Virus record (IMG/VR): IMGVR_UViG_2721755724_000003 | Reading direction: 5' to 3' (one strand) | DNA length: 36,875 bases | From: a virus | Lineage: Duplodnaviria > Heunggongvirae > Uroviricota > Caudoviricetes | Shown here: piece by piece, positions 935 through 36,875 of the stretch | Layout of the letters: each line of letters starts with the position of its first letter | Position numbering within the stretch: position 1 is the stretch's first letter | Translations under genes and position numbers: made by a program | The notes under the pieces: generated by a model | Told to the model about the DNA's origin: nothing | Databases searched by the model: none | What the model saw: the letters and a program-made list of their open reading frames with translations, nothing else

Positions 935-2620
935 GTGAATATAAACGTCGCCGAATTGTTAAATGGGAATTACATTCTGTTATTATTTGTGGTCCTCGCG
1001 CTTGGGCTATGTCTCGGAAAGTTACGACTTGGTTCGATCCAACTGGGTAATTCCATTGGCGTTTTAGTCGTATCGCTGTTATTAGGCCAACAACATTTCA
1101 GCATTAACACCGATGCGCTTAATCTTGGCTTTATGCTGTTTATTTTCTGTGTTGGGGTTGAAGCCGGACCGAACTTTTTTTCCATTTTTTTTCGCGATGG
1201 GAAAAATTACCTAATGTTAGCACTGGTGATGGTTGGCAGTGCGCTGGTGATCGCCTTAGGGTTAGGTAAGCTGTTTGGCTGGGATATTGGCCTGACGGCC
1301 GGTATGTTAGCAGGCTCTATGACGTCGACACCGGTTCTGGTCGGTGCTGGCGATACACTGCGTCATTCCGGCATGGAAAGCAGGCAGCTCTCACTGGCAC
1401 TGGATAATCTGAGCCTCGGGTATGCCTTAACCTATTTAATCGGTCTGGTGAGTTTGATTGTTGGTGCGCGTTACTTGCCGAAATTGCAGCATCAGGACTT
1501 ACAGACCAGCGCCCAGCAAATCGCCCGCGAACGTGGCCTGGACACTGATGCCAACCGTAAGGTTTATTTACCGGTGATCCGCGCCTATCGCGTCGGCCCG
1601 GAGCTGGTGGCCTGGACCGACGGCAAAAATCTGCGTGAACTGGGTATTTATCGACAAACCGGCTGCTACATTGAACGTATTCGACGTAACGGGATTCTGG
1701 CAAATCCAGACGGTGATGCCGTGCTACAAATGGGCGATGAAATAGCGTTGGTAGGCTATCCCGACGCCCATGCCCGACTCGATCCCAGCTTCCGTAACGG
1801 TAAAGAAGTTTTCGATCGTGACCTTCTCGACATGCGTATCGTCACTGAAGAAGTGGTCGTTAAAAACCATAACGCTGTAGGTAAACGTCTCGCACAACTG
1901 AAGTTGACCGATCACGGTTGCTTCCTTAACCGCGTCATTCGTAGCCAGATTGAGATGCCGATAGATGACAACGTCGTGCTTAACAAAGGTGACGTTTTAC
2001 AAGTCAGCGGTGATGCCCGTCGCGTAAAAACCATCGCCGATCGCATCGGCTTTATCTCGATTCACAGCCAGGTCACTGACCTGCTGGCATTTTGCGCCTT
2101 CTTTGTTATTGGGCTGATGATCGGGATGATCACCTTCCAGTTCAGCACATTCAGTTTCGGCATGGGGAACGCTGCCGGGTTGTTATTCGCCGGAATTATG
2201 CTGGGCTTTATGCGTGCTAACCACCCGACCTTCGGTTACATTCCGCAGGGTGCATTAAGCATGGTGAAAGAGTTCGGCTTGATGGTGTTTATGGCAGGCG
2301 TTGGTCTGAGCGCCGGTAGCGGTATTAATAACGGCCTGGGCGCGATTGGCGGTCAGATGTTGATTGCCGGATTGATTGTCAGTCTGGTGCCCGTGGTTAT
2401 CTGTTTCTTGTTCGGTGCTTATGTATTGCGAATGAACCGCGCGCTGTTGTTCGGCGCAATGATGGGCGCACGTACCTGCGCGCCGGCAATGGAGATCATC
2501 AGTGATACAGCTCGCAGTAACATCCCGGCGCTGGGCTATGCGGGCACCTATGCAATCGCCAACGTCCTGCTGACGCTGGCAGGGACAATCATCGTCATGG
2601 TATGGCCAGGATTAGGATAA
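935..2620 (+). CDS. ybjL: putative AAE-family transporter YbjL
   Basis: 561-aa ORF starting at GTG (935), with membrane-spanning N- and C-terminal halves around a soluble middle; length and synteny match YbjL. Confidence 0.8.
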
Positions 2621-2732
2621 AACTGAAGTTGCCCTGAAAATGAAATTTTTTTGCACAACCGCAGAACTTTTCCGCAGGGCATCAGTCTTAATTAGTGCCA
2701 CTGCTTTTCTTTGATGTCCCCATTTTGTGGAG

Positions 2733-2776
2733 CCCATCAACCCCGCCATTTCGGTTCAAGGTTGATGGGTTTTTTG
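2733..2776 (+). terminator. rho-independent terminator downstream of ybjL
   Basis: 10-bp stem (cccatcaacc / ggttgatggg) with a 17-nt loop followed by TTTTTT, about 110 nt after the ybjL stop. Confidence 0.55.
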
Positions 2777-2833
2777 TTGCCTGAAATTTAAGATGTTTAA
2801 AATCATGATGTTAGAAGCACTGTTTTTTAACGA

Positions 2834-2855
2834 TGGCGACAAAATGGCGGCAGCG
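2834..2855. repeat. att core direct repeat, ogr-proximal junction
   Basis: TGGCGACAAAATGGCGGCAGCG immediately outside the ogr stop; near-identical copy inside the int 3' end. Confidence 0.6.
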
Positions 2856-3074
2856 TCAAAGAGAGAGCGCCACCTGTCCTGATTTCATTGGATGCGGCTG
2901 AACTGGATTCGACTCTTTTGGTGTTGCAATCGAACGAACAAAAGTTTCATGGGTAACAAAAGTATGGCTGCAGTTAATGTTCTGGCACTGGTTATAACGC
3001 TCTTTGGTCAATGAAGATACCTGAAAACTGCTGCGAGTATGGGCGGCACTTCCACACAGTGGGCAAATCATCAT
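2856..3074 (-). CDS. ogr: Ogr/Delta/B-family zinc-finger late transcription activator
   Basis: CPLC...CxxxxC zinc-finger pattern and overall similarity to P2 Ogr as I recall it (about 72 aa). The ORF opens at GTG 3107; I chose ATG 3074 (MMICPLC), with ATG 3071 or 3092 as alternatives. Confidence 0.8.
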   Translation of the reverse strand: MMICPLCGSAAHTRSSFQVSSLTKERYNQCQNINCSHTFVTHETFVRSIATPKESNPVQPHPMKSGQVALSL

Positions 3075-3164
3075 TTTTCGAGTTCTCCCCATTTTTGCTA
3101 AATTCACAACAATGATACCGTATTATTCCATTTTGCAAACTTAAAAGTTCTCCATTGCGAAGAA

Positions 3165-4268
3165 TCATTCCATTTCGAAATCATCAATCCTCACTTCAAG
3201 CTCCAGACTGGTCGTAAAACCGTTATCCGGGCTGACGGTATGTGTCAGGGTGGTAATGGTCCATTCCGCATCATCTATCGGCTGTTTAAAACCACTGACC
3301 TTCACAGACATTTCCGTGTAGAGATCTGCCCGCCCTTCTGCCAGTTGTAGAGAAAATGACGCAACGCCGCGTTGCAGGCGTTCCCACTGCATTTTCGCCG
3401 CTCGTTCGGCGTTGCTCCGGTTGGCATAGGTGCGATTAAGTACCAGCACGTTTTCATCCGTACCCACCAGGTAATCGCCCTGCTTCGCTTCTGGCTCTTT
3501 CTTCTGCTTCTTAGTTCTGCGCTTACGCTTCACCGTGGTGCTTTCTTTCTTCGCAGGTTCGCGGGTATGCAACCAGCTGGCAATTACGCCCGTGTAGGCT
3601 CCGCGATCTGCCAGGGTAAATCGGTGACTGTCGCCGTCCTTGCGTGTGATAGTGATCACTGGCAGAGGTTTACCAGTGGCGCTTTTGCCCTGCCCCTGCC
3701 GGATGAATAACAGATTGCCATTTTTCACCGACGCGATGGCACCGTACTGTCTCGCCAGCCGCATCAGAAAACTGCCGTCACTCTCATTAGTCTGGTCTAT
3801 ATGCTCCACGGGCTTATCCGACAGGTCTTTACCCAGTGCCATCTTCAGCTTGTGCCGCGCGGCAATTTCCTGCACCACTTCCCCGACGGTGGTCTTATGC
3901 CACGATTTTTCACGGCGGGTATTCAGCGTTTCCCGAAAATCAGCACTTCGCGCCCGGATAGTCAGGCGGTCCGGTGCGCCAGTGTGTTCAATCTCGTCCA
4001 CTGTGAATGCCCCTTTCGGGAAAAGCGGCTGCCCCTTCCAGCCCAGCGCCAGCGTAATGACCGCACCACGGCGCGGCAGCACGATTTTTCCGTCAGCGTC
4101 ATCCAGCTCCAGATCAAGCTGGTCCGCTTCAAAGCCCCGGTTATCCGTCAGCGTCAAACTCATCAGGCGGTTATCCAGCACAGTGGTGATATCCCTGCCC
4201 TCAATACTGATGCTGAATGCGGGAGTTTTGTTGCCTTTGTTAAGCAGTTCAGAGCTGAAATTCACCAC
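3165..4268 (-). CDS. D: tail protein D (P2 gpD-like)
   Basis: 367-aa ORF in the gpD position between ogr and U; P2 synteny and size. Confidence 0.8.
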   Translation of the reverse strand: MVNFSSELLNKGNKTPAFSISIEGRDITTVLDNRLMSLTLTDNRGFEADQLDLELDDADGKIVLPRRGAVITLALGWKGQPLFPKGAFTVDEIEHTGAPDRLTIRARSADFRETLNTRREKSWHKTTVGEVVQEIAARHKLKMALGKDLSDKPVEHIDQTNESDGSFLMRLARQYGAIASVKNGNLLFIRQGQGKSATGKPLPVITITRKDGDSHRFTLADRGAYTGVIASWLHTREPAKKESTTVKRKRRTKKQKKEPEAKQGDYLVGTDENVLVLNRTYANRSNAERAAKMQWERLQRGVASFSLQLAEGRADLYTEMSVKVSGFKQPIDDAEWTITTLTHTVSPDNGFTTSLELEVRIDDFEME

Positions 4269-10144: not shown

Positions 10145-10717
10145 TCAGGGAGATTTATTGCTCTTATTTGCCGGAAATTTTCGATAAATGGTAGAAACGC
10201 CTACATCAAAAATCAGTGCAATACGCTGTCTTGATTCTCCGGCCTCGAGTAAACGTCCAATCTGTGCCCACTGTTCAGTGGTCAACTTAGGACGGCGTCC
10301 ACCTACTCTGCCTTTAGCACGAGCTGCAGCCAGCCCTGCCCGGGTACGTTCAACTATCAGTTCGCGTTCCATTTCAGCCAGGGCACCCATGACATGAAAA
10401 AAGAAACGGCCCATTGGGGTACTGGTATCAATACTGTCAGTCAGGCTTCGGAAATTCACACCACGCTGGCGCAACTCTTCTATCAGCGTAACAAGATGCC
10501 GCATACTGCGCCCCAACCTGTCCAGCTTCCAGACAACCAGCGTGTCTCCTGCCAATAGTGTCCTGAGCAGTTTTTTAAGCCCCGGTCTGTCGGACTTAGT
10601 GCCACTGATTTTGTCCTCAAAAATCCGCTCACATCCCGCGCAGTTCAGCGCATTACGTTGCAAATCGGTGTTCTGGTCATTTGTTGACACGCGTACATAG
10701 CCAATAAGCATGATCAT
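10145..10717 (-). CDS. serine DNA invertase (Hin/Gin/Cin/Pin family)
   Basis: 190 aa; N-terminal GYVRVSTNDQ catalytic-serine motif, VVWKLDRLGRS, and C-terminal HTH; very close to Hin/Gin as I recall them. Confidence 0.9.
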   Translation of the reverse strand: MIMLIGYVRVSTNDQNTDLQRNALNCAGCERIFEDKISGTKSDRPGLKKLLRTLLAGDTLVVWKLDRLGRSMRHLVTLIEELRQRGVNFRSLTDSIDTSTPMGRFFFHVMGALAEMERELIVERTRAGLAAARAKGRVGGRRPKLTTEQWAQIGRLLEAGESRQRIALIFDVGVSTIYRKFPANKSNKSP

Positions 10718-11093: not shown

Positions 11094-11519
11094 TTAGGTT
11101 GAGGAGGGCCAAACAATATCTGGAGCGCTGGATACGTCCACCGCTTCCAGCGCATCAAGATAATCCAGCCATAAATTGTACTGCGTTAATTCATCATCTT
11201 TCAGGCGTCCAAGCACCGATTTGCCAGGCCACTGCTTACTGTTTATGTATTCGTTAACCTGATTAATCAATTGCTGCTTTTCCAATTCGGCTGCGGCAAT
11301 TTGTTCCTCATGAGTTGGTGGTGGAATATCAATCCATGCTGGCATTCCGTCGATGACACCTCTGTATTTTCCTTCTGGTGCTTCCTTCATAAATTCGGCG
11401 GCAACAGTGTCGTCAATTTCGATTCCATCATCGGGCCATTCGCCGGATTCCTGATAAGCGATTTTAAGCTCCACAGGGAAAAACGCATTTTTATCGGCAC
11501 TGAAAATATATTTCTGCAT
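11094..11519 (-). CDS. tail fibre assembly protein (P2 gpG / Tfa-like)
   Basis: 141-aa ORF immediately downstream of H; acidic N-terminal part typical of Tfa chaperones. Confidence 0.8.
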   Translation of the reverse strand: MQKYIFSADKNAFFPVELKIAYQESGEWPDDGIEIDDTVAAEFMKEAPEGKYRGVIDGMPAWIDIPPPTHEEQIAAAELEKQQLINQVNEYINSKQWPGKSVLGRLKDDELTQYNLWLDYLDALEAVDVSSAPDIVWPSST

Positions 11520-21370: not shown

Positions 21371-23137
21371 ATGAACACCACACTGACACCCGCAGATCTC
21401 GATCCCCGTCGGCAGGCCATGCTGCTGTACTTTCAGGGATACCGCGTAGCCCGCATTGCTGAAATGCTGGGCGAGAAAGTTGCAACCGTTCACAGCTGGA
21501 AAAAACGCGACAAGTGGGGTGACTATGGGCCGCTGGATCAGATGCAGCTCACCACCGCCGCACGCTATTGCCAGCTCATTATGAAGGAGCACAAAGAAGG
21601 GAAAGATTTCAAAGAAATTGACCTGCTGGCACGCCAGTCGGAGCGCCACGCGCGGATCGGCAAGTTTAACAATGGCGGCAACGAAGCCGACTTAAACCCT
21701 AACGTCGCCAACCGCAACAAAGGGCCGCGCCGTCAGCCGGAAAAGAATGTTTTCACCGATGAACAGATTGAGAAGCTGGAAGAAATCTTCCATTCCTCCA
21801 TGTTCAACTACCAGCGCCACTGGTGGGAAGCTGGAAAAACCAACCGCATCCGTAATCTGCTGAAGTCACGCCAGATCGGCGCGACCTTTTACTTTGCCCG
21901 TGAAGCCCTGATTGACGCCCTGCTTACCGGACGTAACCAGATTTTCCTTTCTGCCAGTAAGGCACAGGCTCACGTCTTTAAGCAATACATCATCGACTTC
22001 GCCAAAGAAGTCGAGGTGGAGCTGAAAGGCGATCCGATGGTGCTTCCTAACGGGGCCACGCTTTACTTCCTCGGCACCAATGCCCGCACTGCCCAGAGTT
22101 ATCACGGCAACCTGTATCTGGATGAATATTTCTGGATACCGAAATTCCAGGAGCTGCGCAAAGTGGCTTCCGGTATGGCTATTCACAAAAAATGGCGACA
22201 AACCTATTTTTCCACGCCATCCAGCCTGACACACAGTGCTTATCCGTTCTGGTCTGGTGCGCTGTTCAACCGTGGGCGCAACAAAGCCGATAAGGTGGAC
22301 ATCGACCTGTCCCACAGCAATCTGGCCCCCGGCCTGCTGTGCGCAGACGGGCAATACCGCCAGATAGTCACCGTGGAAGATGCAGTGCGCGGCGGATGTA
22401 ACCTTTTCGACCTCGATCAGTTGCGCATGGAGTACAGCCCGGACGAATACCAGAACCTGCTGATGTGCGAGTTTGTGGACGATCTCGCGTCCGTGTTCCC
22501 GCTCAGCGAGCTGCAGGCGTGCATGGTGGACAGTTGGGAAGTCTGGAGCGACTTTCATGCACTGGCCCTGCGCCCGTTTGGCTGGCGCGAAGTGTGGATC
22601 GGTTATGACCCGGCAAAAGGTACGCAGAACGGCGACAGCGCCGGATGCGTGGTGGTGGCACCGCCAGCCGTGCCAGGCGGTAAGTTTCGCATTCTTGAAC
22701 GTCACCAGTGGCGCGGGATGGACTTCCGCGCCCAGGCTGACGCCATCAAAAAACTGACCGAACAGTACAACGTGACATACATCGGTATCGACTCAACCGG
22801 CGTCGGTCACGGGGTTTACGAGAACGTGAAAGCGTTTTTTCCTGCCGTCCGGGAGTTTGTCTACAACCCCAACGTTAAAAACGCCCTGGTACTCAAGGCC
22901 TACGACATTATTAGCCACCGCCGCCTGGAGTTTGACGCAGGGCACACCGACATAGCGCAGTCCTTTATGGCAATCCGTCGCGCCACCACTGCCAGCGGCA
23001 ACCGCCCGACCTATGAAGCCAGCCGCAGCGAAGAAGCCAGCCACGCCGATCTGGCCTGGGCAACAATGCACGCACTGTTTAATGAACCGCTGCAGGGCGA
23101 GTCCGCCAATACCAGCAATATTGTGGAGATTTTTTGA
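21371..23137 (+). CDS. P: terminase large (ATPase) subunit (P2 gpP-like)
   Basis: 588-aa ORF divergent from O; P2 gpP is about 590 aa. Confidence 0.85.
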   Translation: MNTTLTPADLDPRRQAMLLYFQGYRVARIAEMLGEKVATVHSWKKRDKWGDYGPLDQMQLTTAARYCQLIMKEHKEGKDFKEIDLLARQSERHARIGKFNNGGNEADLNPNVANRNKGPRRQPEKNVFTDEQIEKLEEIFHSSMFNYQRHWWEAGKTNRIRNLLKSRQIGATFYFAREALIDALLTGRNQIFLSASKAQAHVFKQYIIDFAKEVEVELKGDPMVLPNGATLYFLGTNARTAQSYHGNLYLDEYFWIPKFQELRKVASGMAIHKKWRQTYFSTPSSLTHSAYPFWSGALFNRGRNKADKVDIDLSHSNLAPGLLCADGQYRQIVTVEDAVRGGCNLFDLDQLRMEYSPDEYQNLLMCEFVDDLASVFPLSELQACMVDSWEVWSDFHALALRPFGWREVWIGYDPAKGTQNGDSAGCVVVAPPAVPGGKFRILERHQWRGMDFRAQADAIKKLTEQYNVTYIGIDSTGVGHGVYENVKAFFPAVREFVYNPNVKNALVLKAYDIISHRRLEFDAGHTDIAQSFMAIRRATTASGNRPTYEASRSEEASHADLAWATMHALFNEPLQGESANTSNIVEIF

Positions 23138-24162
23138 TGGGAAAGAGTAAGAAAAACCGCGCTGCGGCGACGAATCAGCTCAAGCATAAAAGCCAAACTT
23201 CAGCCGAAGCATTCAGCTTTGGCGATCCCGTTCCTGTTATGGACCGCCGTGAACTGCTGGACTATGTGGAATGCGTACAGATGGATCGCTGGTATGAGCC
23301 GCCCGTCAGCTTTGACGGACTGGCACGAACCTTCCGCGCCGCCGTGCATCACAGCTCACCAATTGCGGTGAAATGCAACATTCTGACCAGTACCTACATC
23401 CCTCACCCGCTGCTCAGCCAGCAGGCTTTTTCACGTTTTGTGCAGGACTATCTGGTATTTGGTAACGCCTACCTGGAGAAACGCACGAACCGCTTCGGTG
23501 AAGTTATCGCCCTTGAGCCTGCTCTGGCAAAATACACCCGACGCGGGTTAGACCTGGATACCTACTGGTTTGTGCAATACGGTATGACAACCCAGCCGTA
23601 TCAGTTCACGAAAGGCAGCATTTTTCATCTGATGGAACCTGACATCAACCAGGAGATCTACGGCCTACCAGGTTATCTTTCTGCCATTCCGTCAGCCCTG
23701 CTCAACGAGTCCGCCACGCTGTTCCGCCGGAAGTATTACATTAACGGCAGCCATGCAGGCTTCATCATGTACATGACCGATGCCGCGCAGAACCAGGAGG
23801 ATGTGAACAACCTCCGCAATGCGATGAAAAGCGCCAAAGGCCCTGGCAACTTCCGCAACCTGTTTATGTACTCGCCTAACGGCAAAAAGGACGGGCTTCA
23901 GATCATCCCGTTGTCAGAAGTCGCGGCGAAGGATGAATTTCTGAACATCAAGAACGTCAGCCGTGATGACATGATGGCAGCACACCGCGTACCGCCTCAG
24001 ATGATGGGAATTTTGCCGAATAATGTTGGGGGTTTTGGTGATGTGGAGAAGGCGAGCTGCGTCTTCGTAAGAAATGAACTATTACCACTTCAAAAAAGAT
24101 TCATGGAAATAAACAGATGGCTTGGTCATGAAATTATAAATTTTGAAATATATACATTATAA
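23134..24162 (+). CDS. Q: portal protein (P2 gpQ-like)
   Basis: 342-aa ORF overlapping the P stop (ATGA); P2 gpQ is about 344 aa. Confidence 0.85.
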   Translation: MMGKSKKNRAAATNQLKHKSQTSAEAFSFGDPVPVMDRRELLDYVECVQMDRWYEPPVSFDGLARTFRAAVHHSSPIAVKCNILTSTYIPHPLLSQQAFSRFVQDYLVFGNAYLEKRTNRFGEVIALEPALAKYTRRGLDLDTYWFVQYGMTTQPYQFTKGSIFHLMEPDINQEIYGLPGYLSAIPSALLNESATLFRRKYYINGSHAGFIMYMTDAAQNQEDVNNLRNAMKSAKGPGNFRNLFMYSPNGKKDGLQIIPLSEVAAKDEFLNIKNVSRDDMMAAHRVPPQMMGILPNNVGGFGDVEKASCVFVRNELLPLQKRFMEINRWLGHEIINFEIYTL

Positions 24163-24167
24163 AACCC

Positions 24168-24190
24168 AACGGCATCACAATGATGCCGTT
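24168..24190 (-). terminator. hairpin terminator between convergent Q and the PIN-like cargo gene
   Basis: Perfect inverted repeat aacggcatca / tgatgccgtt; on the minus strand it is followed by a T-rich run (gggttttata). Confidence 0.5.
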
Positions 24191-24199
24191 ATGAACGAA

Positions 24200-25261
24200 T
24201 TAATATTCAAAATTATTTTCTTCAATAGAGAACTCAATCCCTCGGGATAACTTATCAATATTCACATCAAATGCGATATCTGTTAATTCACCATCCTCGA
24301 TTTCATACATAACTTCAATTTCAATATCGAAACTAATCTCTTGAACTTCAGTTCGTGTGGTTGTCTCCATTGGAATCATTACTTTATCTTCGCTATCCCA
24401 ATACCCATTATTAAAGTCTGGACCAGAAACAGTAACTTCAAAATCTACAGAAACAGAGAAGGTCGCTAGACAATAATTATTGTCAATCTTAATTATTGAT
24501 GGTTCAAAGTCATCAATATTGACGACTTCAAATGAATCCAATTCAGCGTCTTCCCAAGTTGAAACGTTATATCCATCGGCATCATTGAGTTGGGCAATTA
24601 CGTCCGCTCTTATGTCTTCACGTTTGCTTTCGATAAACTGCATCAATTTATTACTTAATTCGTTTGTATGCGTATTGTATTCACCTAGAAACTTATCAAG
24701 TGAATCAATTTGATGAAGATTGTTTTTACCATCACAATAATTTTTTAAGTCACTATCCTCAGAAATGATATACACATCTTCATCATTAACAAATCGCTCT
24801 ACCGCAGCTAAAGTGATTGCATCAGGAAACTCACTTTTTTTCTTATTTTGCCCAAATGGTGGTTCTTTGCCAAAGTATTTATCTAAAACCTCATTAAGAT
24901 CTATCACTTCTATTGTAGCTAATTTGGCGTGACATCCTTTCAAAAAATCATCAAAAACTTTTTGTGCTGCTTCGTGAATTTCATGTTCGTTAAATTGCTG
25001 AAAAAAACCATGGAGCGGTCCATTATCAATACTATTCAAAAGCCTAGCTTTTCTTTGTACTGTGTTTATAGCCTGCAGAGCATCCTTTATTGATTCCTCT
25101 ATTTTACCTTTTACTTCTCTCTCTACAACTGTAGTTGTAATTAAGACTAAATCACCTTTCGCACATAATTCATGGAAAGCTTTAAATGCTACCCCCTCAA
25201 AATGAAGACCAGCCTTTACGTACGTTTGTGTGTCAATAAATACCTTATTTGTTTTAAGCAT
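24200..25261 (-). CDS. unassigned cargo protein, PIN-like N-terminal domain plus acidic C-terminal domain
   Basis: 353 aa, AT-rich; N-terminus carries PIN-like acidic positions (VFIDTQTY, LITTTVVEREV, YIISEDSDL); the C-terminal 130 aa or so are strongly Asp/Glu-rich. Confidence 0.55.
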   Translation of the reverse strand: MLKTNKVFIDTQTYVKAGLHFEGVAFKAFHELCAKGDLVLITTTVVEREVKGKIEESIKDALQAINTVQRKARLLNSIDNGPLHGFFQQFNEHEIHEAAQKVFDDFLKGCHAKLATIEVIDLNEVLDKYFGKEPPFGQNKKKSEFPDAITLAAVERFVNDEDVYIISEDSDLKNYCDGKNNLHQIDSLDKFLGEYNTHTNELSNKLMQFIESKREDIRADVIAQLNDADGYNVSTWEDAELDSFEVVNIDDFEPSIIKIDNNYCLATFSVSVDFEVTVSGPDFNNGYWDSEDKVMIPMETTTRTEVQEISFDIEIEVMYEIEDGELTDIAFDVNIDKLSRGIEFSIEENNFEY

Positions 25262-25387
25262 ACTAATCCTAATAAGTTTTAAGATCCGCTACAATTGTTT
25301 ATGTTTATTTTTTATCAATAATCATACGTAGTTAAGATTATCCATGTCGAAAAATTAAATCAACTTCAATTTATCCTTAAGCGCGCG

Positions 25388-25406
25388 CTCGTATCCCCGC
25401 CACGCC
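25388..25406 (-). other. candidate cos (cohesive end) site
   Basis: Minus strand reads GGCGTGGCGGGGATACGAG; the first 13 nt match my recollection of the 186/P2 cohesive end (GGCGTGGCGGGGAAAGCAT), and the orientation relative to Q is as in P2. Confidence 0.5.
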
Positions 25407-25728
25407 TGCCCGCTTTATGTAGTGGTTTTCATGCACCTGCATGTTCTACGTAAAAGCCCGCTAGTTCTGGCGAGCCTTAGCAAAAACGATCCTTAAACGA
25501 TCATGCGATTTCATGCAGCATAGTCATGCACTGTCTAAGAGAAGTGAAAGTCCGTATCTGAATGACCACTTGAAAAACGAAACATACAGACTTACAAAGA
25601 TGAAGCTCTACTGTGAGCGAGGAACATACATAGTTGCTCTGTAATAGCCAAATTTTAAGCAGGAAATCTCTTTTTTATGACAAAACTATAAAGAAAAACA
25701 GACCGTTTCATCGCTCGATGAAACTATA

Positions 25729-27306
25729 CTACAATACTTTTCTCTCGATGGTATTTTTAATGGTCAACATATCTTTAGGAATACTTTTTTTCCCCTCTAT
25801 ACGTATGGTAAACACAAAAAGAATAACGGCTGATCTCACAATTTTCATGAGTTGTAAGAGCTGTTTCTCAAACTTTTCTTTCTCAATAAATCTCACCTCA
25901 TCAAAAAATCCATAAGAATTATATAAATCAACTAACATGTCTTTCTCGTGAATAACTAACAGTTTATGTTCTAAATCATTCCTCCATTCTTTAAAAAAAG
26001 CAAGCTCACCATTTTTATCATTCAAATCCATAGCAATACTAAACAAACCCAGCAATCCTTTATTATTTATTTTGTTTATTTTAAGCTTTCTTTTTTCATC
26101 ACTAATCCGCCAGAAGTTATGAAAGTATATATGTCCTCTATCTGGTTTTAAATCAAATAATTGACACAGAGCAACTGCTATTTTATCCAAGATACCAAAG
26201 CAAGCTCTAAATGCAACCCTTAACTTCTCAACATTTTCATACAATATTTCTCCATTATACAATTCAGAATAACATACCTCCGAATCCTCATCAAAAAACT
26301 CACTATCAACCTTATATTCAAAAAACATTTTTCGTGCTAAGGAATACTCAGCTTTAAGTCTATTTAACACCATTTCCATTGGCACTATAAAATCACCAAA
26401 CACACCTTCCTCGGTGGTCGCAATAGTTATATTATCTTTAGATGACGCATAACAATTGCAATATAGCGAATGATCAGACAACATTAGATTATTATCTATA
26501 CAAAACCTCTGGTAGTTTGATAAAGTATCATACTCCTCCTGCGTGAGCCTTTCATCTGTACTTATATCCTCTATGCCATATACACATGATTCACTCAATA
26601 TACTTTCGTTGTACTTTATTTTTCTTTGAAGAGCAACCTTCCATGAAGGAAAACATTTCCCTGACTTTATTGCACACTCATAACCTCGAATAACTTCTTT
26701 AATCATTTTATATGTATATGTTGTAGATAATTCATTAAGCAATTCTAATGCCTCAGATCTGTTTACCCACGCCTGAGGAATTGAGTTATCAATAGATATT
26801 GCTTGTTCATAATAATCCATTGATTCAGATATACGATATTGTTTTTTTAATACATTAGCTAGATTAACTATTAAATCAGGGGGCACCCATCCATCTTCTT
26901 GTGAAAGTTTAAACGCTTTCCAGTAATTATTTTTTACATCATTCAGCTTAATGAAACTATCAATATCTGCATTGTCATTAGGATTAAAATCAAGAACTGC
27001 GCTCATTCCATTTGCCAAGTTATAGTAATATAAAGATTCTTTCATTATAGTCAGAAATTCATTTTTATTGTTTATAAAGATATTTAAGCCTTCCTCCGCT
27101 ATATTTTTTACATTACTAAAATTTCCGATATCAATAAGATTTCCGGCCAAATTAGATAATATAATTATTCTATTTTCTTTGATTGTATTTATCTCATCGA
27201 TACCGTTAAGAATATCCTTTACATTTTTATAGGCAGAATCAAATGAACCTGCATTAATAAGATCATCTACGAACCCCATTTTTGAAACAACATAGTTGAT
27301 ATCCAT
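25729..27306 (-). CDS. unassigned cargo protein, TPR-like N-terminal region plus C-terminal HEPN-motif region
   Basis: 525 aa, AT-rich; TPR-like stretch (YYEQAISIDNSIPQAWVNRSEALELL) and C-terminal EWRNDLEHKLLVIHE matching the HEPN Rx4-6H signature. Confidence 0.55.
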   Translation of the reverse strand: MDINYVVSKMGFVDDLINAGSFDSAYKNVKDILNGIDEINTIKENRIIILSNLAGNLIDIGNFSNVKNIAEEGLNIFINNKNEFLTIMKESLYYYNLANGMSAVLDFNPNDNADIDSFIKLNDVKNNYWKAFKLSQEDGWVPPDLIVNLANVLKKQYRISESMDYYEQAISIDNSIPQAWVNRSEALELLNELSTTYTYKMIKEVIRGYECAIKSGKCFPSWKVALQRKIKYNESILSESCVYGIEDISTDERLTQEEYDTLSNYQRFCIDNNLMLSDHSLYCNCYASSKDNITIATTEEGVFGDFIVPMEMVLNRLKAEYSLARKMFFEYKVDSEFFDEDSEVCYSELYNGEILYENVEKLRVAFRACFGILDKIAVALCQLFDLKPDRGHIYFHNFWRISDEKRKLKINKINNKGLLGLFSIAMDLNDKNGELAFFKEWRNDLEHKLLVIHEKDMLVDLYNSYGFFDEVRFIEKEKFEKQLLQLMKIVRSAVILFVFTIRIEGKKSIPKDMLTIKNTIERKVL

Positions 27307-33499: not shown

Positions 33500-33624
33500 G
33501 ATGCAACATTCCTCTTTTAGCAATGATTAATCAGGATGAATACTGATCGTTTGTATTATGTGAACACTGCAAACATACGATCACATCATGAAATCGTCAA
33601 GGTAAAAGTTCACTTGGAGTGACC

Positions 33625-34188
33625 ATGAATTTGGAAAAAGGCGGTCGTGGGGCCATAGAGCGCATGGTTGAAGCCTATGGTTTCAAGACAAGACAAGCTT
33701 TGTGTGATCATTTGGGCATTTCTAAAAGCACCTTAGCCACGCGCTATATGCGTGATTCATTCCCGGCAGAATGGGTAATCCAATGTGCACTTGAAACCGG
33801 CACGTCGCTAGAGTGGCTAACTACTGGGCAAGGTTCAAAAGAAAGTTCACAAAAAGAAAACACAAAAGAGATCGAAAGGAAGATTTTATCAAGCGGAAAA
33901 CTACTTCCTGATGGTTACTACATTTTCGACAACAACTTTTTGCCTGAAAAACTAAAAAAACCTTTTGTTGTGATCGATGGCGCATCAGAGTTTATCTGTG
34001 ATTCGGATTATGAGGATGTACGTGATGGTAAGTGGATCGTTGATATTGATGGCGAGGTTGCTATCAGGAATCTGACAAGACTGCCGGGACGTCGTCTAAA
34101 TGTCGATGGCGGCAGCAGTTCCTTTGAATGCAAAATAGATGAAATTGATATCATAGGAAAAATTAGAAGCGCGATCGTCAATTATTAA
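33625..34188 (+). CDS. cI: 186-type CI immunity repressor
   Basis: About 187 aa with an N-terminal HTH ([20 protein letters not shown]) and a C-terminal domain; start at ATG 33625 with GGAG upstream (the ORF track opens at GTG 33619). Confidence 0.75.
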
Positions 34189-34397: not shown

Positions 34398-34408
34398 GGT
34401 TGCTTCAT

Positions 34409-35740
34409 ATGAATAATGATATGACTTTTGAAAACAGAGATGAGTATAATAGAAAAATCATTGCTGAAAAAATAATAAGCTTACTCGAGTCCCCCTTAAA
34501 AATATCCCCTATTGTTATCGATGGGGACTGGGGTACCGGTAAAACCGAATTTTCAAAAAAATTAGCGGCATTGATTGAAAAAAATGAATCTGGGCATAAA
34601 GTAGTATATATTGATGCATTTACTGAAGATCATAATGATGCTCCCATACTTACTATAATGGCTGCAATAGTTGCATTATATCCAGAGAGTGAAAAGAAGG
34701 AATTAATATCAAAGGCATTACCAGCATTGAGATTTGGACTTAAAACTGTACTCAAAGCTGGCGCTGGGTGGATTTTAAAACAAAATGCAGATGATATTGC
34801 GGATGAATTCGAAGATGCTATTAAAGATGCGGCTAACTCAGCTATAGATGGTACTGTAGAAGCACTGCTTGATGATCATATTGAAGCAAAGAAACATTTG
34901 CTTGCTCTCAAGGAAGTACTTGCTGAACTAACTAGCGAAAATAAAATAACAATTATCATTGACGAACTTGACCGTTGTAAACCAAGCTTTGCCATCTCTA
35001 TCATCGAAAATATAAAACATGTTTTTGACACTGAAAATCTTAACTTCTTGTTAGTTGCTAACATCTCACAATTGAAAGCATCAATAAATCATATTTACGG
35101 TGCAGGTGTTGACTCAGAAAGATATCTTGATAAATTTATAAAATTCACTTACAGCCTGCCAGTGACTTTCACTGAAAACAATTACGATAAAATTTTGGCT
35201 TCGAACTCTCATTTTAGAATGCTATGTAACGAGTCTGAAAGACTAAAAGAAATTGGAGAAAGTAGTATTCATATAGTTCAAAAATTTATCGAACTAAAAG
35301 GCTTGTCGCTACGGGAAGTTGAAACCTTATCAAGATATCTAGAAATTTATCAAATTTTATCTCAAAATGAAATCAGCAATAAATTTATACCAGGCTATTG
35401 CTGTTATCGAACCCTTGCAGTAATTCTTTATTCGTTTGGTCGTGAACTGGCCCTTAACTACGTAGAAGATAAAATAGATGCACAATTAATAATCAATTTC
35501 TTCGGTGTTAATAGACTCCCATATCAGACAGATCAATATAACATCAACATCTACTATTATGCATTATTTGGTATAACTTATAAATATATGCCAGAAGGTT
35601 CTCCTTTACTTCCTTCTGAAAACGATGAAAAAAACAGATGGGCTGAAATAAGTGATTATCATATTTTAAAAGGAAATGCAGGTGTAGAAGACCCTGTTAG
35701 AATATTCAAAAACACCTTAAAAGTTTTCTTGCTCCAATGA
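34409..35740 (+). CDS. KAP-family P-loop NTPase
   Basis: Walker A GDWGTGKT, a YIDAF motif after it (KAP proteins have NAW-like motifs there) and Walker B IIIDELDRC; AT-rich; sits between cI and int. Confidence 0.7.
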   Translation: MNNDMTFENRDEYNRKIIAEKIISLLESPLKISPIVIDGDWGTGKTEFSKKLAALIEKNESGHKVVYIDAFTEDHNDAPILTIMAAIVALYPESEKKELISKALPALRFGLKTVLKAGAGWILKQNADDIADEFEDAIKDAANSAIDGTVEALLDDHIEAKKHLLALKEVLAELTSENKITIIIDELDRCKPSFAISIIENIKHVFDTENLNFLLVANISQLKASINHIYGAGVDSERYLDKFIKFTYSLPVTFTENNYDKILASNSHFRMLCNESERLKEIGESSIHIVQKFIELKGLSLREVETLSRYLEIYQILSQNEISNKFIPGYCCYRTLAVILYSFGRELALNYVEDKIDAQLIINFFGVNRLPYQTDQYNINIYYYALFGITYKYMPEGSPLLPSENDEKNRWAEISDYHILKGNAGVEDPVRIFKNTLKVFLLQ

Positions 35741-35822: not shown

Positions 35823-36875
35823 ATGGCAGTACGAAAACTCAACACAGGTAAATGGATTTGTGAATGCTACCCCGCCGGGCGCAATGGGCGGCGTGTGCGT
35901 AAGCAGTTTGCAACTAAGGGTGAAGCATTGGCTTTTGAGCGTCACACGATGGAAGAAACCGGAGCAAAACCCTGGCTGGGTGAATCAGTGGATCGTCGAA
36001 CACTGAAAGACGTGGTTGAGCTATGGTTCAAACTACATGGTAAATCTCTGACGGCTGGGCAGCATGTCTATGACAAATTGCTGTTGATGGTTGACGCTCT
36101 GGGAAATCCCATTGCAACCGATCTCACCTCTAAAATGTTTGCCCACTATCGAGATAAACGCCTGACAGGAGAGATCTACTTCAGCGAAAAATGGAAGAAA
36201 GGAGCAAGCCCGGTCACCGTTAACCTGGAGCAAAGCTATCTAAGTAGTGTTTTTAGCGAACTATCCCGCTTGGGCGAATGGTCGTATCAGAACCCACTGG
36301 AGAACATGCGAAAATTCACCATCGCAGAAAAAGAGATGGCATGGCTTACCCATGAACAGATTGTTGAATTGCTGGCTGATTGCAAACGTCAGGACCCAAT
36401 TCTGGCACTGGTAGTCAAGATATGCTTAAGCACAGGCGCACGCTGGCGAGAAGCAATAAATCTTACCCGTTCACAGGTGACTAAATACCGAATTACCTTT
36501 GTCAGAACGAAGGGGAAGAAAAACAGAAGCATTCCCATCAGTAAAGAGCTTTACGAAGAGATCATGGCACTTGATGGGTTCAATTTCTTTACAGACTGCT
36601 ATTTTCAATTTTTATCCGTGATGGAAAAAACGTCTATCGTGCTCCCTCGCGGTCAACTGACACACGTTCTGCGTCATACGTTTGCGGCGCATTTTATGAT
36701 GTCGGGTGGAAACATCCTGGCCTTACAAAAAATTCTCGGGCATCACGATATAAAAATGACGATGCGTTACGCACATCTGGCACCGGATCATCTGGAAACG
36801 GCGCTCCGTTTCAATCCTCTTGCAACGCTGCCAAGTGGCGACAAAGTGGCGGCAGCGGTTGGCATTACCCCGTAA
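35823..36875 (+). CDS. int: tyrosine integrase (P2/186 Int-like)
   Basis: 350 aa with C-terminal HxxR and RYAHL catalytic-tyrosine motifs; the att core repeat lies in its last codons; the stop is the final triplet of the window. Confidence 0.85.
   Translation: MAVRKLNTGKWICECYPAGRNGRRVRKQFATKGEALAFERHTMEETGAKPWLGESVDRRTLKDVVELWFKLHGKSLTAGQHVYDKLLLMVDALGNPIATDLTSKMFAHYRDKRLTGEIYFSEKWKKGASPVTVNLEQSYLSSVFSELSRLGEWSYQNPLENMRKFTIAEKEMAWLTHEQIVELLADCKRQDPILALVVKICLSTGARWREAINLTRSQVTKYRITFVRTKGKKNRSIPISKELYEEIMALDGFNFFTDCYFQFLSVMEKTSIVLPRGQLTHVLRHTFAAHFMMSGGNILALQKILGHHDIKMTMRYAHLAPDHLETALRFNPLATLPSGDKVAAAVGITP
36836..36857. repeat. att core direct repeat, int-proximal junction
   Basis: TGGCGACAAAGTGGCGGCAGCG within the last codons of int; pairs with the 2834-2855 copy. 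Confidence 0.6.

Follow-up and report, generated by a model that had tools for sequence, protein, structure and literature searches.

What does an AT-rich gene inserted beside the cohesive-end (cos) site of a P2-like prophage do, and does it serve the phage or the cell that carries it? The question is raised by a P2-like prophage of Escherichia coli in a 36,875-nucleotide stretch of DNA (IMG/VR virus record IMGVR_UViG_2721755724_000003; the whole stretch is called the window), which is 100% identical to the sequence of strain H2 (NZ_CP010163). The genes of the prophage follow the order capsid N, scaffold O, terminase P, portal Q, approximately 3.4 kb of AT-rich DNA, DinI, replication gene A, and Dam methylase. 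The gene considered here, which we call the PIN gene (24200..25261, minus strand), starts with ATG and encodes 353 residues followed by a stop codon. Its product is labelled 'PIN domain-containing protein' in RefSeq and is a two-domain protein of the PIN_12/Cosus family. The analysis makes it probable that the PIN gene, which sits as a moron in the Q–cos part of the P2 gpA–gpQ hotspot, is a stand-alone anti-phage defence system consisting of this one gene, and that it protects the lysogen against unrelated phages. A defence role, which was already suggested in a preliminary description of the sequence, is the best reading because the protein is a homologue of the validated defence protein Cosus (Brc24) and because its relatives keep company with known defence systems.

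The N-terminal PIN domain comprises residues 1–185 (24707..25261, minus strand). Residues 7–171 align with positions 1–171 of the 172 positions in the profile of the Pfam family PIN_12 (PF16289, formerly DUF4935) with a score of 91 bits against a cut-off of 32 (E = 1.5e-25); DUF4935 is exactly the family that had been guessed in the preliminary description. The domain has the three-dimensional fold of VapC-like PIN proteins, in agreement with the PIN/Rossmann-like nuclease fold proposed earlier, and the proteins most similar to it in structure are VapC toxins of type II toxin–antitoxin systems. Full-length homologues number 160, which, together with the Pfam score, puts the observation well beyond chance. 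The acidic residues previously pointed out at PIN-like positions (IDT, T-x-x-x-x-E, and YIISEDSDL) are present and coincide with the conserved ones: among 65 close homologues with 39–56% identity, D10 of I9-D10-T11, E49 of T44...E49, and Y164, S167, D169, and D171 of Y164-I-I-S167-E-D169-S-D171 are invariant. The same homologues share the invariant K140–K142 and F145-P146-D147-A148, which belong to the basic and aromatic motif K140-K141-K142-x-E144-F145-P146-D147-A148 of the PIN domain. In 81 distant relatives with 18–31% identity, D10 is kept in 78 proteins, and E49, D147, and D169 are each kept in 80. The DUF4935 family has been placed in the VapC-like group of the PIN-like superfamily, with its function recorded as unknown; its genes are mostly monocistronic and encode an uncharacterised α/β C-terminal region (Matelska et al. 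2017; PMC5499597). The protein encoded in the window resembles the members of the family in its length of approximately 350 residues, helical inserts, α/β C-terminal region, and monocistronic context.

The functional precedent is provided by Cosus (Brc24), which has been described in a preprint as a single-gene integron cassette with a 'PIN12' domain (bioRxiv 10.1101/2024.07.02.601719). Brc24 alone made cells completely resistant to phage T7 at both low and high multiplicity of infection, and the variants T12A, D14A, and D96A were reported to be strongly defective, with D14A losing more than 10^5-fold protection (bioRxiv 10.1101/2024.07.02.601719). The sequence of Brc24 used for comparison was that of the 382-residue protein ALG87191.1 from the IncC plasmid pKAZ2 (KR827391). 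BLASTP aligns the two proteins with 30% identity over the N-terminal 235 residues (E = 2e-18). The profile comparison with hhalign covers 285 columns with a probability of 99.1% (E = 1e-18) and reaches the C-domain motifs WED and G-x-DF...DS-x-D. Brc24 is also a member of PIN_12 (E = 2.4e-36), and its C-domain is similarly acidic, with 41 aspartates and glutamates versus eight lysines and arginines. In the alignment, residues D14, D153, and D177 of Brc24 correspond to D10, D147, and D169 of the window protein. Both proteins consist of an N-terminal PIN_12 domain and a strongly acidic, β-rich C-domain of approximately 150 residues, both are encoded by single genes on mobile elements, and they share the first catalytic aspartate, the KKxEFPDA motif, and the S-x-D motif. 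The two differ in that the gene for Cosus is an attC cassette, whereas that in the window is cargo of a P2-like prophage next to cos, and in that D171 of the window protein is replaced by a glycine in Brc24. Because Brc24 protected cultures at a high multiplicity of infection, a non-suicidal mode of action is somewhat likelier than classic abortive infection.

The genomic contexts of nine homologous proteins were read. The homologues from Pantoea (54% identity) and from a metagenomic contig (51% identity) occupy the same slot next to the portal gene in P2-like prophages, directly downstream of the RosmerTA system (RmrT, E = 6e-92; RmrA, E = 7e-196), and the metagenomic locus also carries a restriction–modification pair. 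The homologue from Pseudomonas aeruginosa adjoins AbiTii and a filamentous prophage, and that from Salmonella is located in an integrative and conjugative element near an AAA_15/21 and HNH gene pair. A Vibrio homologue is encoded in an island that interrupts thyA and contains Gabija-like genes and a CTD6/MC2 conflict system; the context of a second Vibrio homologue is uninformative. In Aeromonas, a lambdoid prophage carries the gene at its Q-antiterminator/lysis moron site, and the genes from Pseudomonas and Serratia belong to mobilisable or integrative elements. The DNA of the Pantoea prophage is approximately 76% similar to the window in one unbroken stretch that includes P, Q, and the PIN gene, which suggests a long residence of the PIN gene in the Q–cos slot. 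In Pantoea sp. RIT-PI-b (L005:6236-7943) and in the metagenome (L016:5235-6939), RosmerTA is located immediately upstream of the closest PIN_12 homologues on the same strand, and the RmrA proteins of the two loci are 88% identical. The HTH-M78 gene upstream of PIN_12 in these loci was considered as a regulator of the PIN gene and rejected, as it encodes the RmrA component of RosmerTA, which is a separate system.

The position and composition of the PIN gene show that it is inserted cargo, as had been proposed from its sequence. The portal gene Q (23134..24162, plus strand) is convergent with it and constitutes the conserved left border of the cargo slot. The guanine–cytosine (GC) content drops from 0.53–0.59 in the flanking phage genes to 0.31–0.37 between positions 24001 and 27500, and is 0.34–0.37 in the stretch with the PIN gene (24001-25500); the list of open reading frames and the GC profile thus agree with the earlier account of an AT-rich frame of 353 residues facing the portal gene. 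In sequenced P2-like phages, the only conserved part of the region 24100-25800 is a 197-bp cos core (25360..25556). It contains, on the minus strand, the cos-like 19-mer GGCGTGGCGGGGATACGAG (25388-25406), which places the PIN gene between Q and cos, where it had been located before. The 19-mer was aligned by eye to cosL of P2, GGCGAGGCGGGGAAAGCAC; a search with the P2 cos 19-mer allowing up to three mismatches gave no match in the window. A GGCGTGGCGGGGA-type variant (25394-25406), which we take to resemble cos of phage 186, fits the site better. In P2, the interval between cosL (1-19) and Q (187-1221) contains a terminator alone, so that the earlier statement that P2 lacks a gene there is correct, and the PIN gene therefore represents an insertion of approximately 1.1 kb.

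Comparison to other E. coli prophages places the homology breakpoints at 24101 and 25381 on the Q side and at 25531 and 27584 on the gpA side. Two separate cargo slots therefore lie on either side of the cos core, which splits the Q-proximal one (about 24163-25380) from the gpA-proximal one. The cargo on the Q side starts only approximately 7 bp from the cos-like 19-mer (25381-25406, counted from the breakpoint at 25381), and the gpA side has nearly all of the conserved sequence around cos, which extends to 25556. The gpA-side slot of the window, across cos, holds a gene encoding a 525-residue protein with TPR and HEPN_LA2681 domains (25729..27306, minus strand; Pfam E = 1.8e-38), which has its own terminator-like hairpin (25705-25724) and is called the HEPN gene here. 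Prophages lacking the PIN gene can carry other cargo in the Q-side slot: in strain EC100 (NZ_CM128676; L002:2250-3914), it is a gene for a 554-residue KAP-like NTPase similar to the PADLOC candidate PDC-S49 (E = 1e-29), which is paired with the HEPN gene. Since a PIN-less prophage can carry a PDC-S49-like gene there, the Q side of cos is a separate site for cargo, and what it holds assorts independently of the cargo on the gpA side.

The PIN gene would constitute a transcription unit of its own, which fits the genomic evidence that it can occur alone. A candidate sigma-70-like promoter (25321..25350, minus strand; TCGACA, 18 nucleotides, TATGAT; 10 of 12 consensus positions) is located approximately 60 nucleotides upstream of the ATG. 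A GC-rich hairpin followed by a run of thymines (24167..24191, minus strand), directly past the stop codon, in the interval where the PIN gene and Q converge, is the likely terminator, and occupies the place of the annotated tQ terminator of P2 between Q and cos. These sites are matches to consensus patterns and not proof of function; the number of promoter-like sites in the region does not exceed that in shuffled sequences, whereas four terminator-like sites were found versus 0.8 expected.

The PIN gene was detected in 36 of 5426 complete E. coli genomes, always at an identity of at least 99.6%, on the chromosome, and in a single copy. It is the sole cargo between Q and DinI in strain 09-02E and is paired with a DUF8087 gene in strain 28A18CPO003A. 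Its promoter-like site and terminator, its solo occurrence in 09-02E, and its changing neighbours in different genomes indicate that it acts as a single gene. The cargo of the P2 gpA–gpQ hotspot (old/tin, DUF4238, and DprA-PRTase; PMC9122126) and the PIN gene are alike in their locus, AT-rich single-gene or small-cassette style, and sporadic distribution; in position, variable presence, and atypical composition (GC 0.34), the PIN gene is cargo of this hotspot. The genes old and tin of P2 are, however, on the gpA side of cos, while the PIN gene is on the Q side. The catalogue of the hotspot already lists the same protein (WP_000920989/990) as 'PIN_12' in several differing gpA–gpQ arrangements (Table S5 of Rousset et al. 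2022; PMC9122126).

The C-terminal part of the protein (residues 186–353; 24203..24706, minus strand) is composed of two helices and a hyper-acidic β-sheet domain. Residues 226–353 (24203-24586) include 26.6% aspartate and glutamate and only 3.9% lysine and arginine, which give the 128-residue segment a net charge of -29 and an isoelectric point of 4.05. It had been recognized earlier that approximately 130 C-terminal residues are extremely rich in aspartate and glutamate, and this stands; by contrast, the accompanying description of repeated short acidic motifs or a tail does not. No DNA repeats were found, and the segment was confidently modelled as a β-sheet domain with a predicted local distance difference test score of about 89. 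In the model, the C-domain is a folded cystatin/NTF2-like roll and is neither a low-complexity tail nor a set of repeats. Compared to the published outline of DUF4935 (PMC5499597), the C-terminal region is resolved here, as modelled, into a conserved hyper-acidic cystatin/NTF2-like domain that is confined to PIN_12.

The acidity of the C-domain is a property of the family. In the 65 close homologues, the mean net charge of the C-domain is -28.7 (range -35 to -21), compared to a mean of -8.6 for the N-domain, and the corresponding values for the 81 distant relatives are -24.2 (range -36 to -14) and -1.2. Residues D282, D289, and E291 of the C-domain are near-invariant. A search of 1.84 billion representative proteins with the C-domain profile identified 249 clusters with E-values of at most 0.001. 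Nearly all of the best 150 matches listed are 345–385 residues long and have the C-domain at approximately residues 186–355, apart from shorter matches taken as fragments; two very long proteins align through short acidic stretches only. All 81 full-length proteins with the C-domain that were checked carry PIN_12, and therefore the PIN and acidic domains form one obligate unit. In these 81 proteins, the C-domain was not found attached to other effectors, as would be expected of a promiscuous sensor module.

The two domains may be combined into a reasonable mechanism. The N-terminal VapC-like PIN domain would be a metal-dependent endonuclease with an acidic active site made up of D10, E49, D147, and D169, and its invariant K140–K142 patch would hold the backbone of the nucleic acid. 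Control of the nuclease would fall to the hyper-acidic, cystatin/NTF2-like C-domain to which it is always fused; this domain may shield or auto-inhibit the basic substrate groove, mediate oligomerisation, or bind a component of the phage. Infection would lift this control, and the nucleic acid of the phage (or of the host) would be cut. What we infer for the gene in the window thus extends to its nuclease activity, substrate, trigger, and defence phenotype. A more specific version, which we regard as doubtful, is that the C-domain is a built-in nucleic-acid mimic that occupies the KKK motif and the active-site groove as a pseudo-substrate and is pulled off by a nucleic-acid-binding protein of the phage. 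If true, such a decoy substrate would unite sensor and switch in a single polypeptide, an activation logic that has not yet been described for defence nucleases.

Several observations weigh against the PIN gene being a defence nuclease of this kind. The identity to Brc24 is only approximately 30%, and the data on Cosus come from a preprint. Residue T12 of Brc24 corresponds to F8 here, D96 falls into a variable, poorly aligned loop, and neither appears to be conserved. The Brc24 variants D153A and D177A were made but were not reported to be defective (bioRxiv 10.1101/2024.07.02.601719), and therefore even Cosus cannot yet be credited with the classical four-carboxylate mechanism of PIN nucleases. 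No demonstration of nuclease activity for any member of PIN_12 was found in the biochemical literature. No model of PADLOC-DB v2 matches the window protein, Brc24, or the Pantoea homologue; the window protein also has no match in NCBIfam, and its marginal match in PHROGs is to a family with no assigned function. The PIN_12 protein was outside the set of hotspot systems cloned and tested by Rousset et al. 2022 (PMC9122126), and some homologues have no recognisable defence neighbours.

The structural similarity to VapC raises the alternative that the PIN protein is an addiction toxin that stabilises the prophage, with the acidic C-domain serving as a built-in antitoxin, so that the benefit would be prophage retention and not defence. 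PIN-like families are frequently toxins of toxin–antitoxin systems (PMC5499597), and strong expression of Brc24 causes an 11% fitness cost (bioRxiv 10.1101/2024.07.02.601719). However, the unit contains no antitoxin-sized open reading frame of the kind that is adjacent and co-transcribed in VapBC modules: there is none in the approximately 126 bp from cos to the ATG, a terminator follows the stop codon, and the next gene downstream is the convergent portal gene. Unlike VapC toxins, to which its identity is 10–16%, the window protein is more than twice their size, carries an additional domain besides its long helical inserts, and is not accompanied by a VapB gene. Furthermore, an antitoxin that is covalently fused to its toxin cannot give post-segregational killing, and the homologue Brc24 confers phage resistance by itself. 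We consider the addiction toxin unlikely, although toxin–antitoxin and defence roles overlap and are in part not exclusive. The net charge of -29 in 128 residues, conserved across the family, is what could also be expected of an anti-defence factor, in which the hyper-acidic domain would mimic DNA in the manner of Ocr or ArdA and titrate DNA-binding immunity proteins of the host or of competitors to the benefit of the P2-like phage. Judged from the sequence, alternating acidic residues on long β-strands would produce a surface covered with carboxylates. A relationship of the PIN protein to known DNA mimics of the Ocr/ArdA type was found neither in fold nor in sequence, and this role appears improbable.

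It had been suggested that the PIN gene is partnered with the HEPN gene. The two AT-rich genes are adjacent in the window and have the same orientation, and both encode nuclease-type domains. However, a two-gene system is largely refuted by their distribution: among the complete E. coli genomes, 34 of the 36 carriers of the PIN gene have no HEPN gene, nine of the 11 carriers of the HEPN gene have no PIN gene, and only two (strains H2 and M8) have both. The comparison of the locus proposed earlier to reveal co-variation thus shows that the two genes assort independently. They are separated by the cos site and by separate terminators, recombination breakpoints are located at the cos core, and an HEPN_LA2681 neighbour occurs in none of the nine homologue contexts. 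The HEPN gene is independent cargo outside the PIN unit, and the suggested partnership is very improbable. The location of the PIN gene within approximately 130 bp of cos, beside the portal and terminase genes, could point to a function in the phage life cycle, for instance as an accessory to cos cleavage or packaging or as a virion component. Such a function is hardly credible, since the gene is absent from P2 and from approximately 97% of E. coli genomes that contain the cos region (36 versus 1277), has a foreign composition, and has homologues in non-phage elements. None of 50,697 phage records contains the gene at the DNA level, and the sole homologue among them, from Enterobacter phage ENT4 (unverified; 41% identity), has no P2 portal gene or cos nearby. 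Defence by the PIN gene alone is the reading with which the genomic evidence agrees best.

Other parts of the window contain further accessory genes. The HEPN gene is a candidate for a separate defence gene; its product has no convincing PADLOC model, with the best matches to TPR (E = 1e-4) and Csx1/Csm6 (E = 0.048). A third AT-rich cargo gene (34400-35740, plus strand; GC approximately 0.31–0.36) encodes a 446-residue KAP-family P-loop NTPase that matches the PADLOC candidate PDC-S20 (E = 1e-171) and, weakly, PifA. It is positioned between a CI-type repressor gene (33619-34188) and the integrase gene (35823-36875), an interval that has been described as a minor defence hotspot of P2 (PMC13586616). 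A gene for a Hin-type serine invertase (Resolvase and HTH_7 domains) adjoins a tail-fibre assembly gene (10145-10717 and 11094-11519, both on the minus strand; GC approximately 0.46), and the pair looks like a tail-fibre inversion module for switching the host range. At the left end of the window, a host gene (935-2620, plus strand) encodes an Asp-Al_Ex permease with TrkA_C domains, which places the left boundary of the prophage within approximately 2600-3200.

The locus, the Pfam family, the functional precedent, and the listing in the hotspot catalogue were already on record. Because the locus, family, and precedent exist, the PIN protein is best regarded as a divergent member of a known defence family. 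What is added here is the link to Cosus over both domains, the conserved acidity of a folded, family-restricted C-domain, and the independence from the HEPN neighbour. If the defence role is confirmed, the Cosus family, so far represented by one integron cassette described in a preprint, would also include a gene carried by temperate phages of E. coli, and the catalogue of the P2 hotspot would gain a further single-gene defence. The mechanistic interest lies in the coupling of a VapC-like nuclease to a conserved, extremely acidic folded domain in every protein of the PIN_12/Cosus family examined. The small PIN_12 protein may thus provide a tractable model for how a stand-alone PIN nuclease stays harmless in the cell and is then switched on upon infection.
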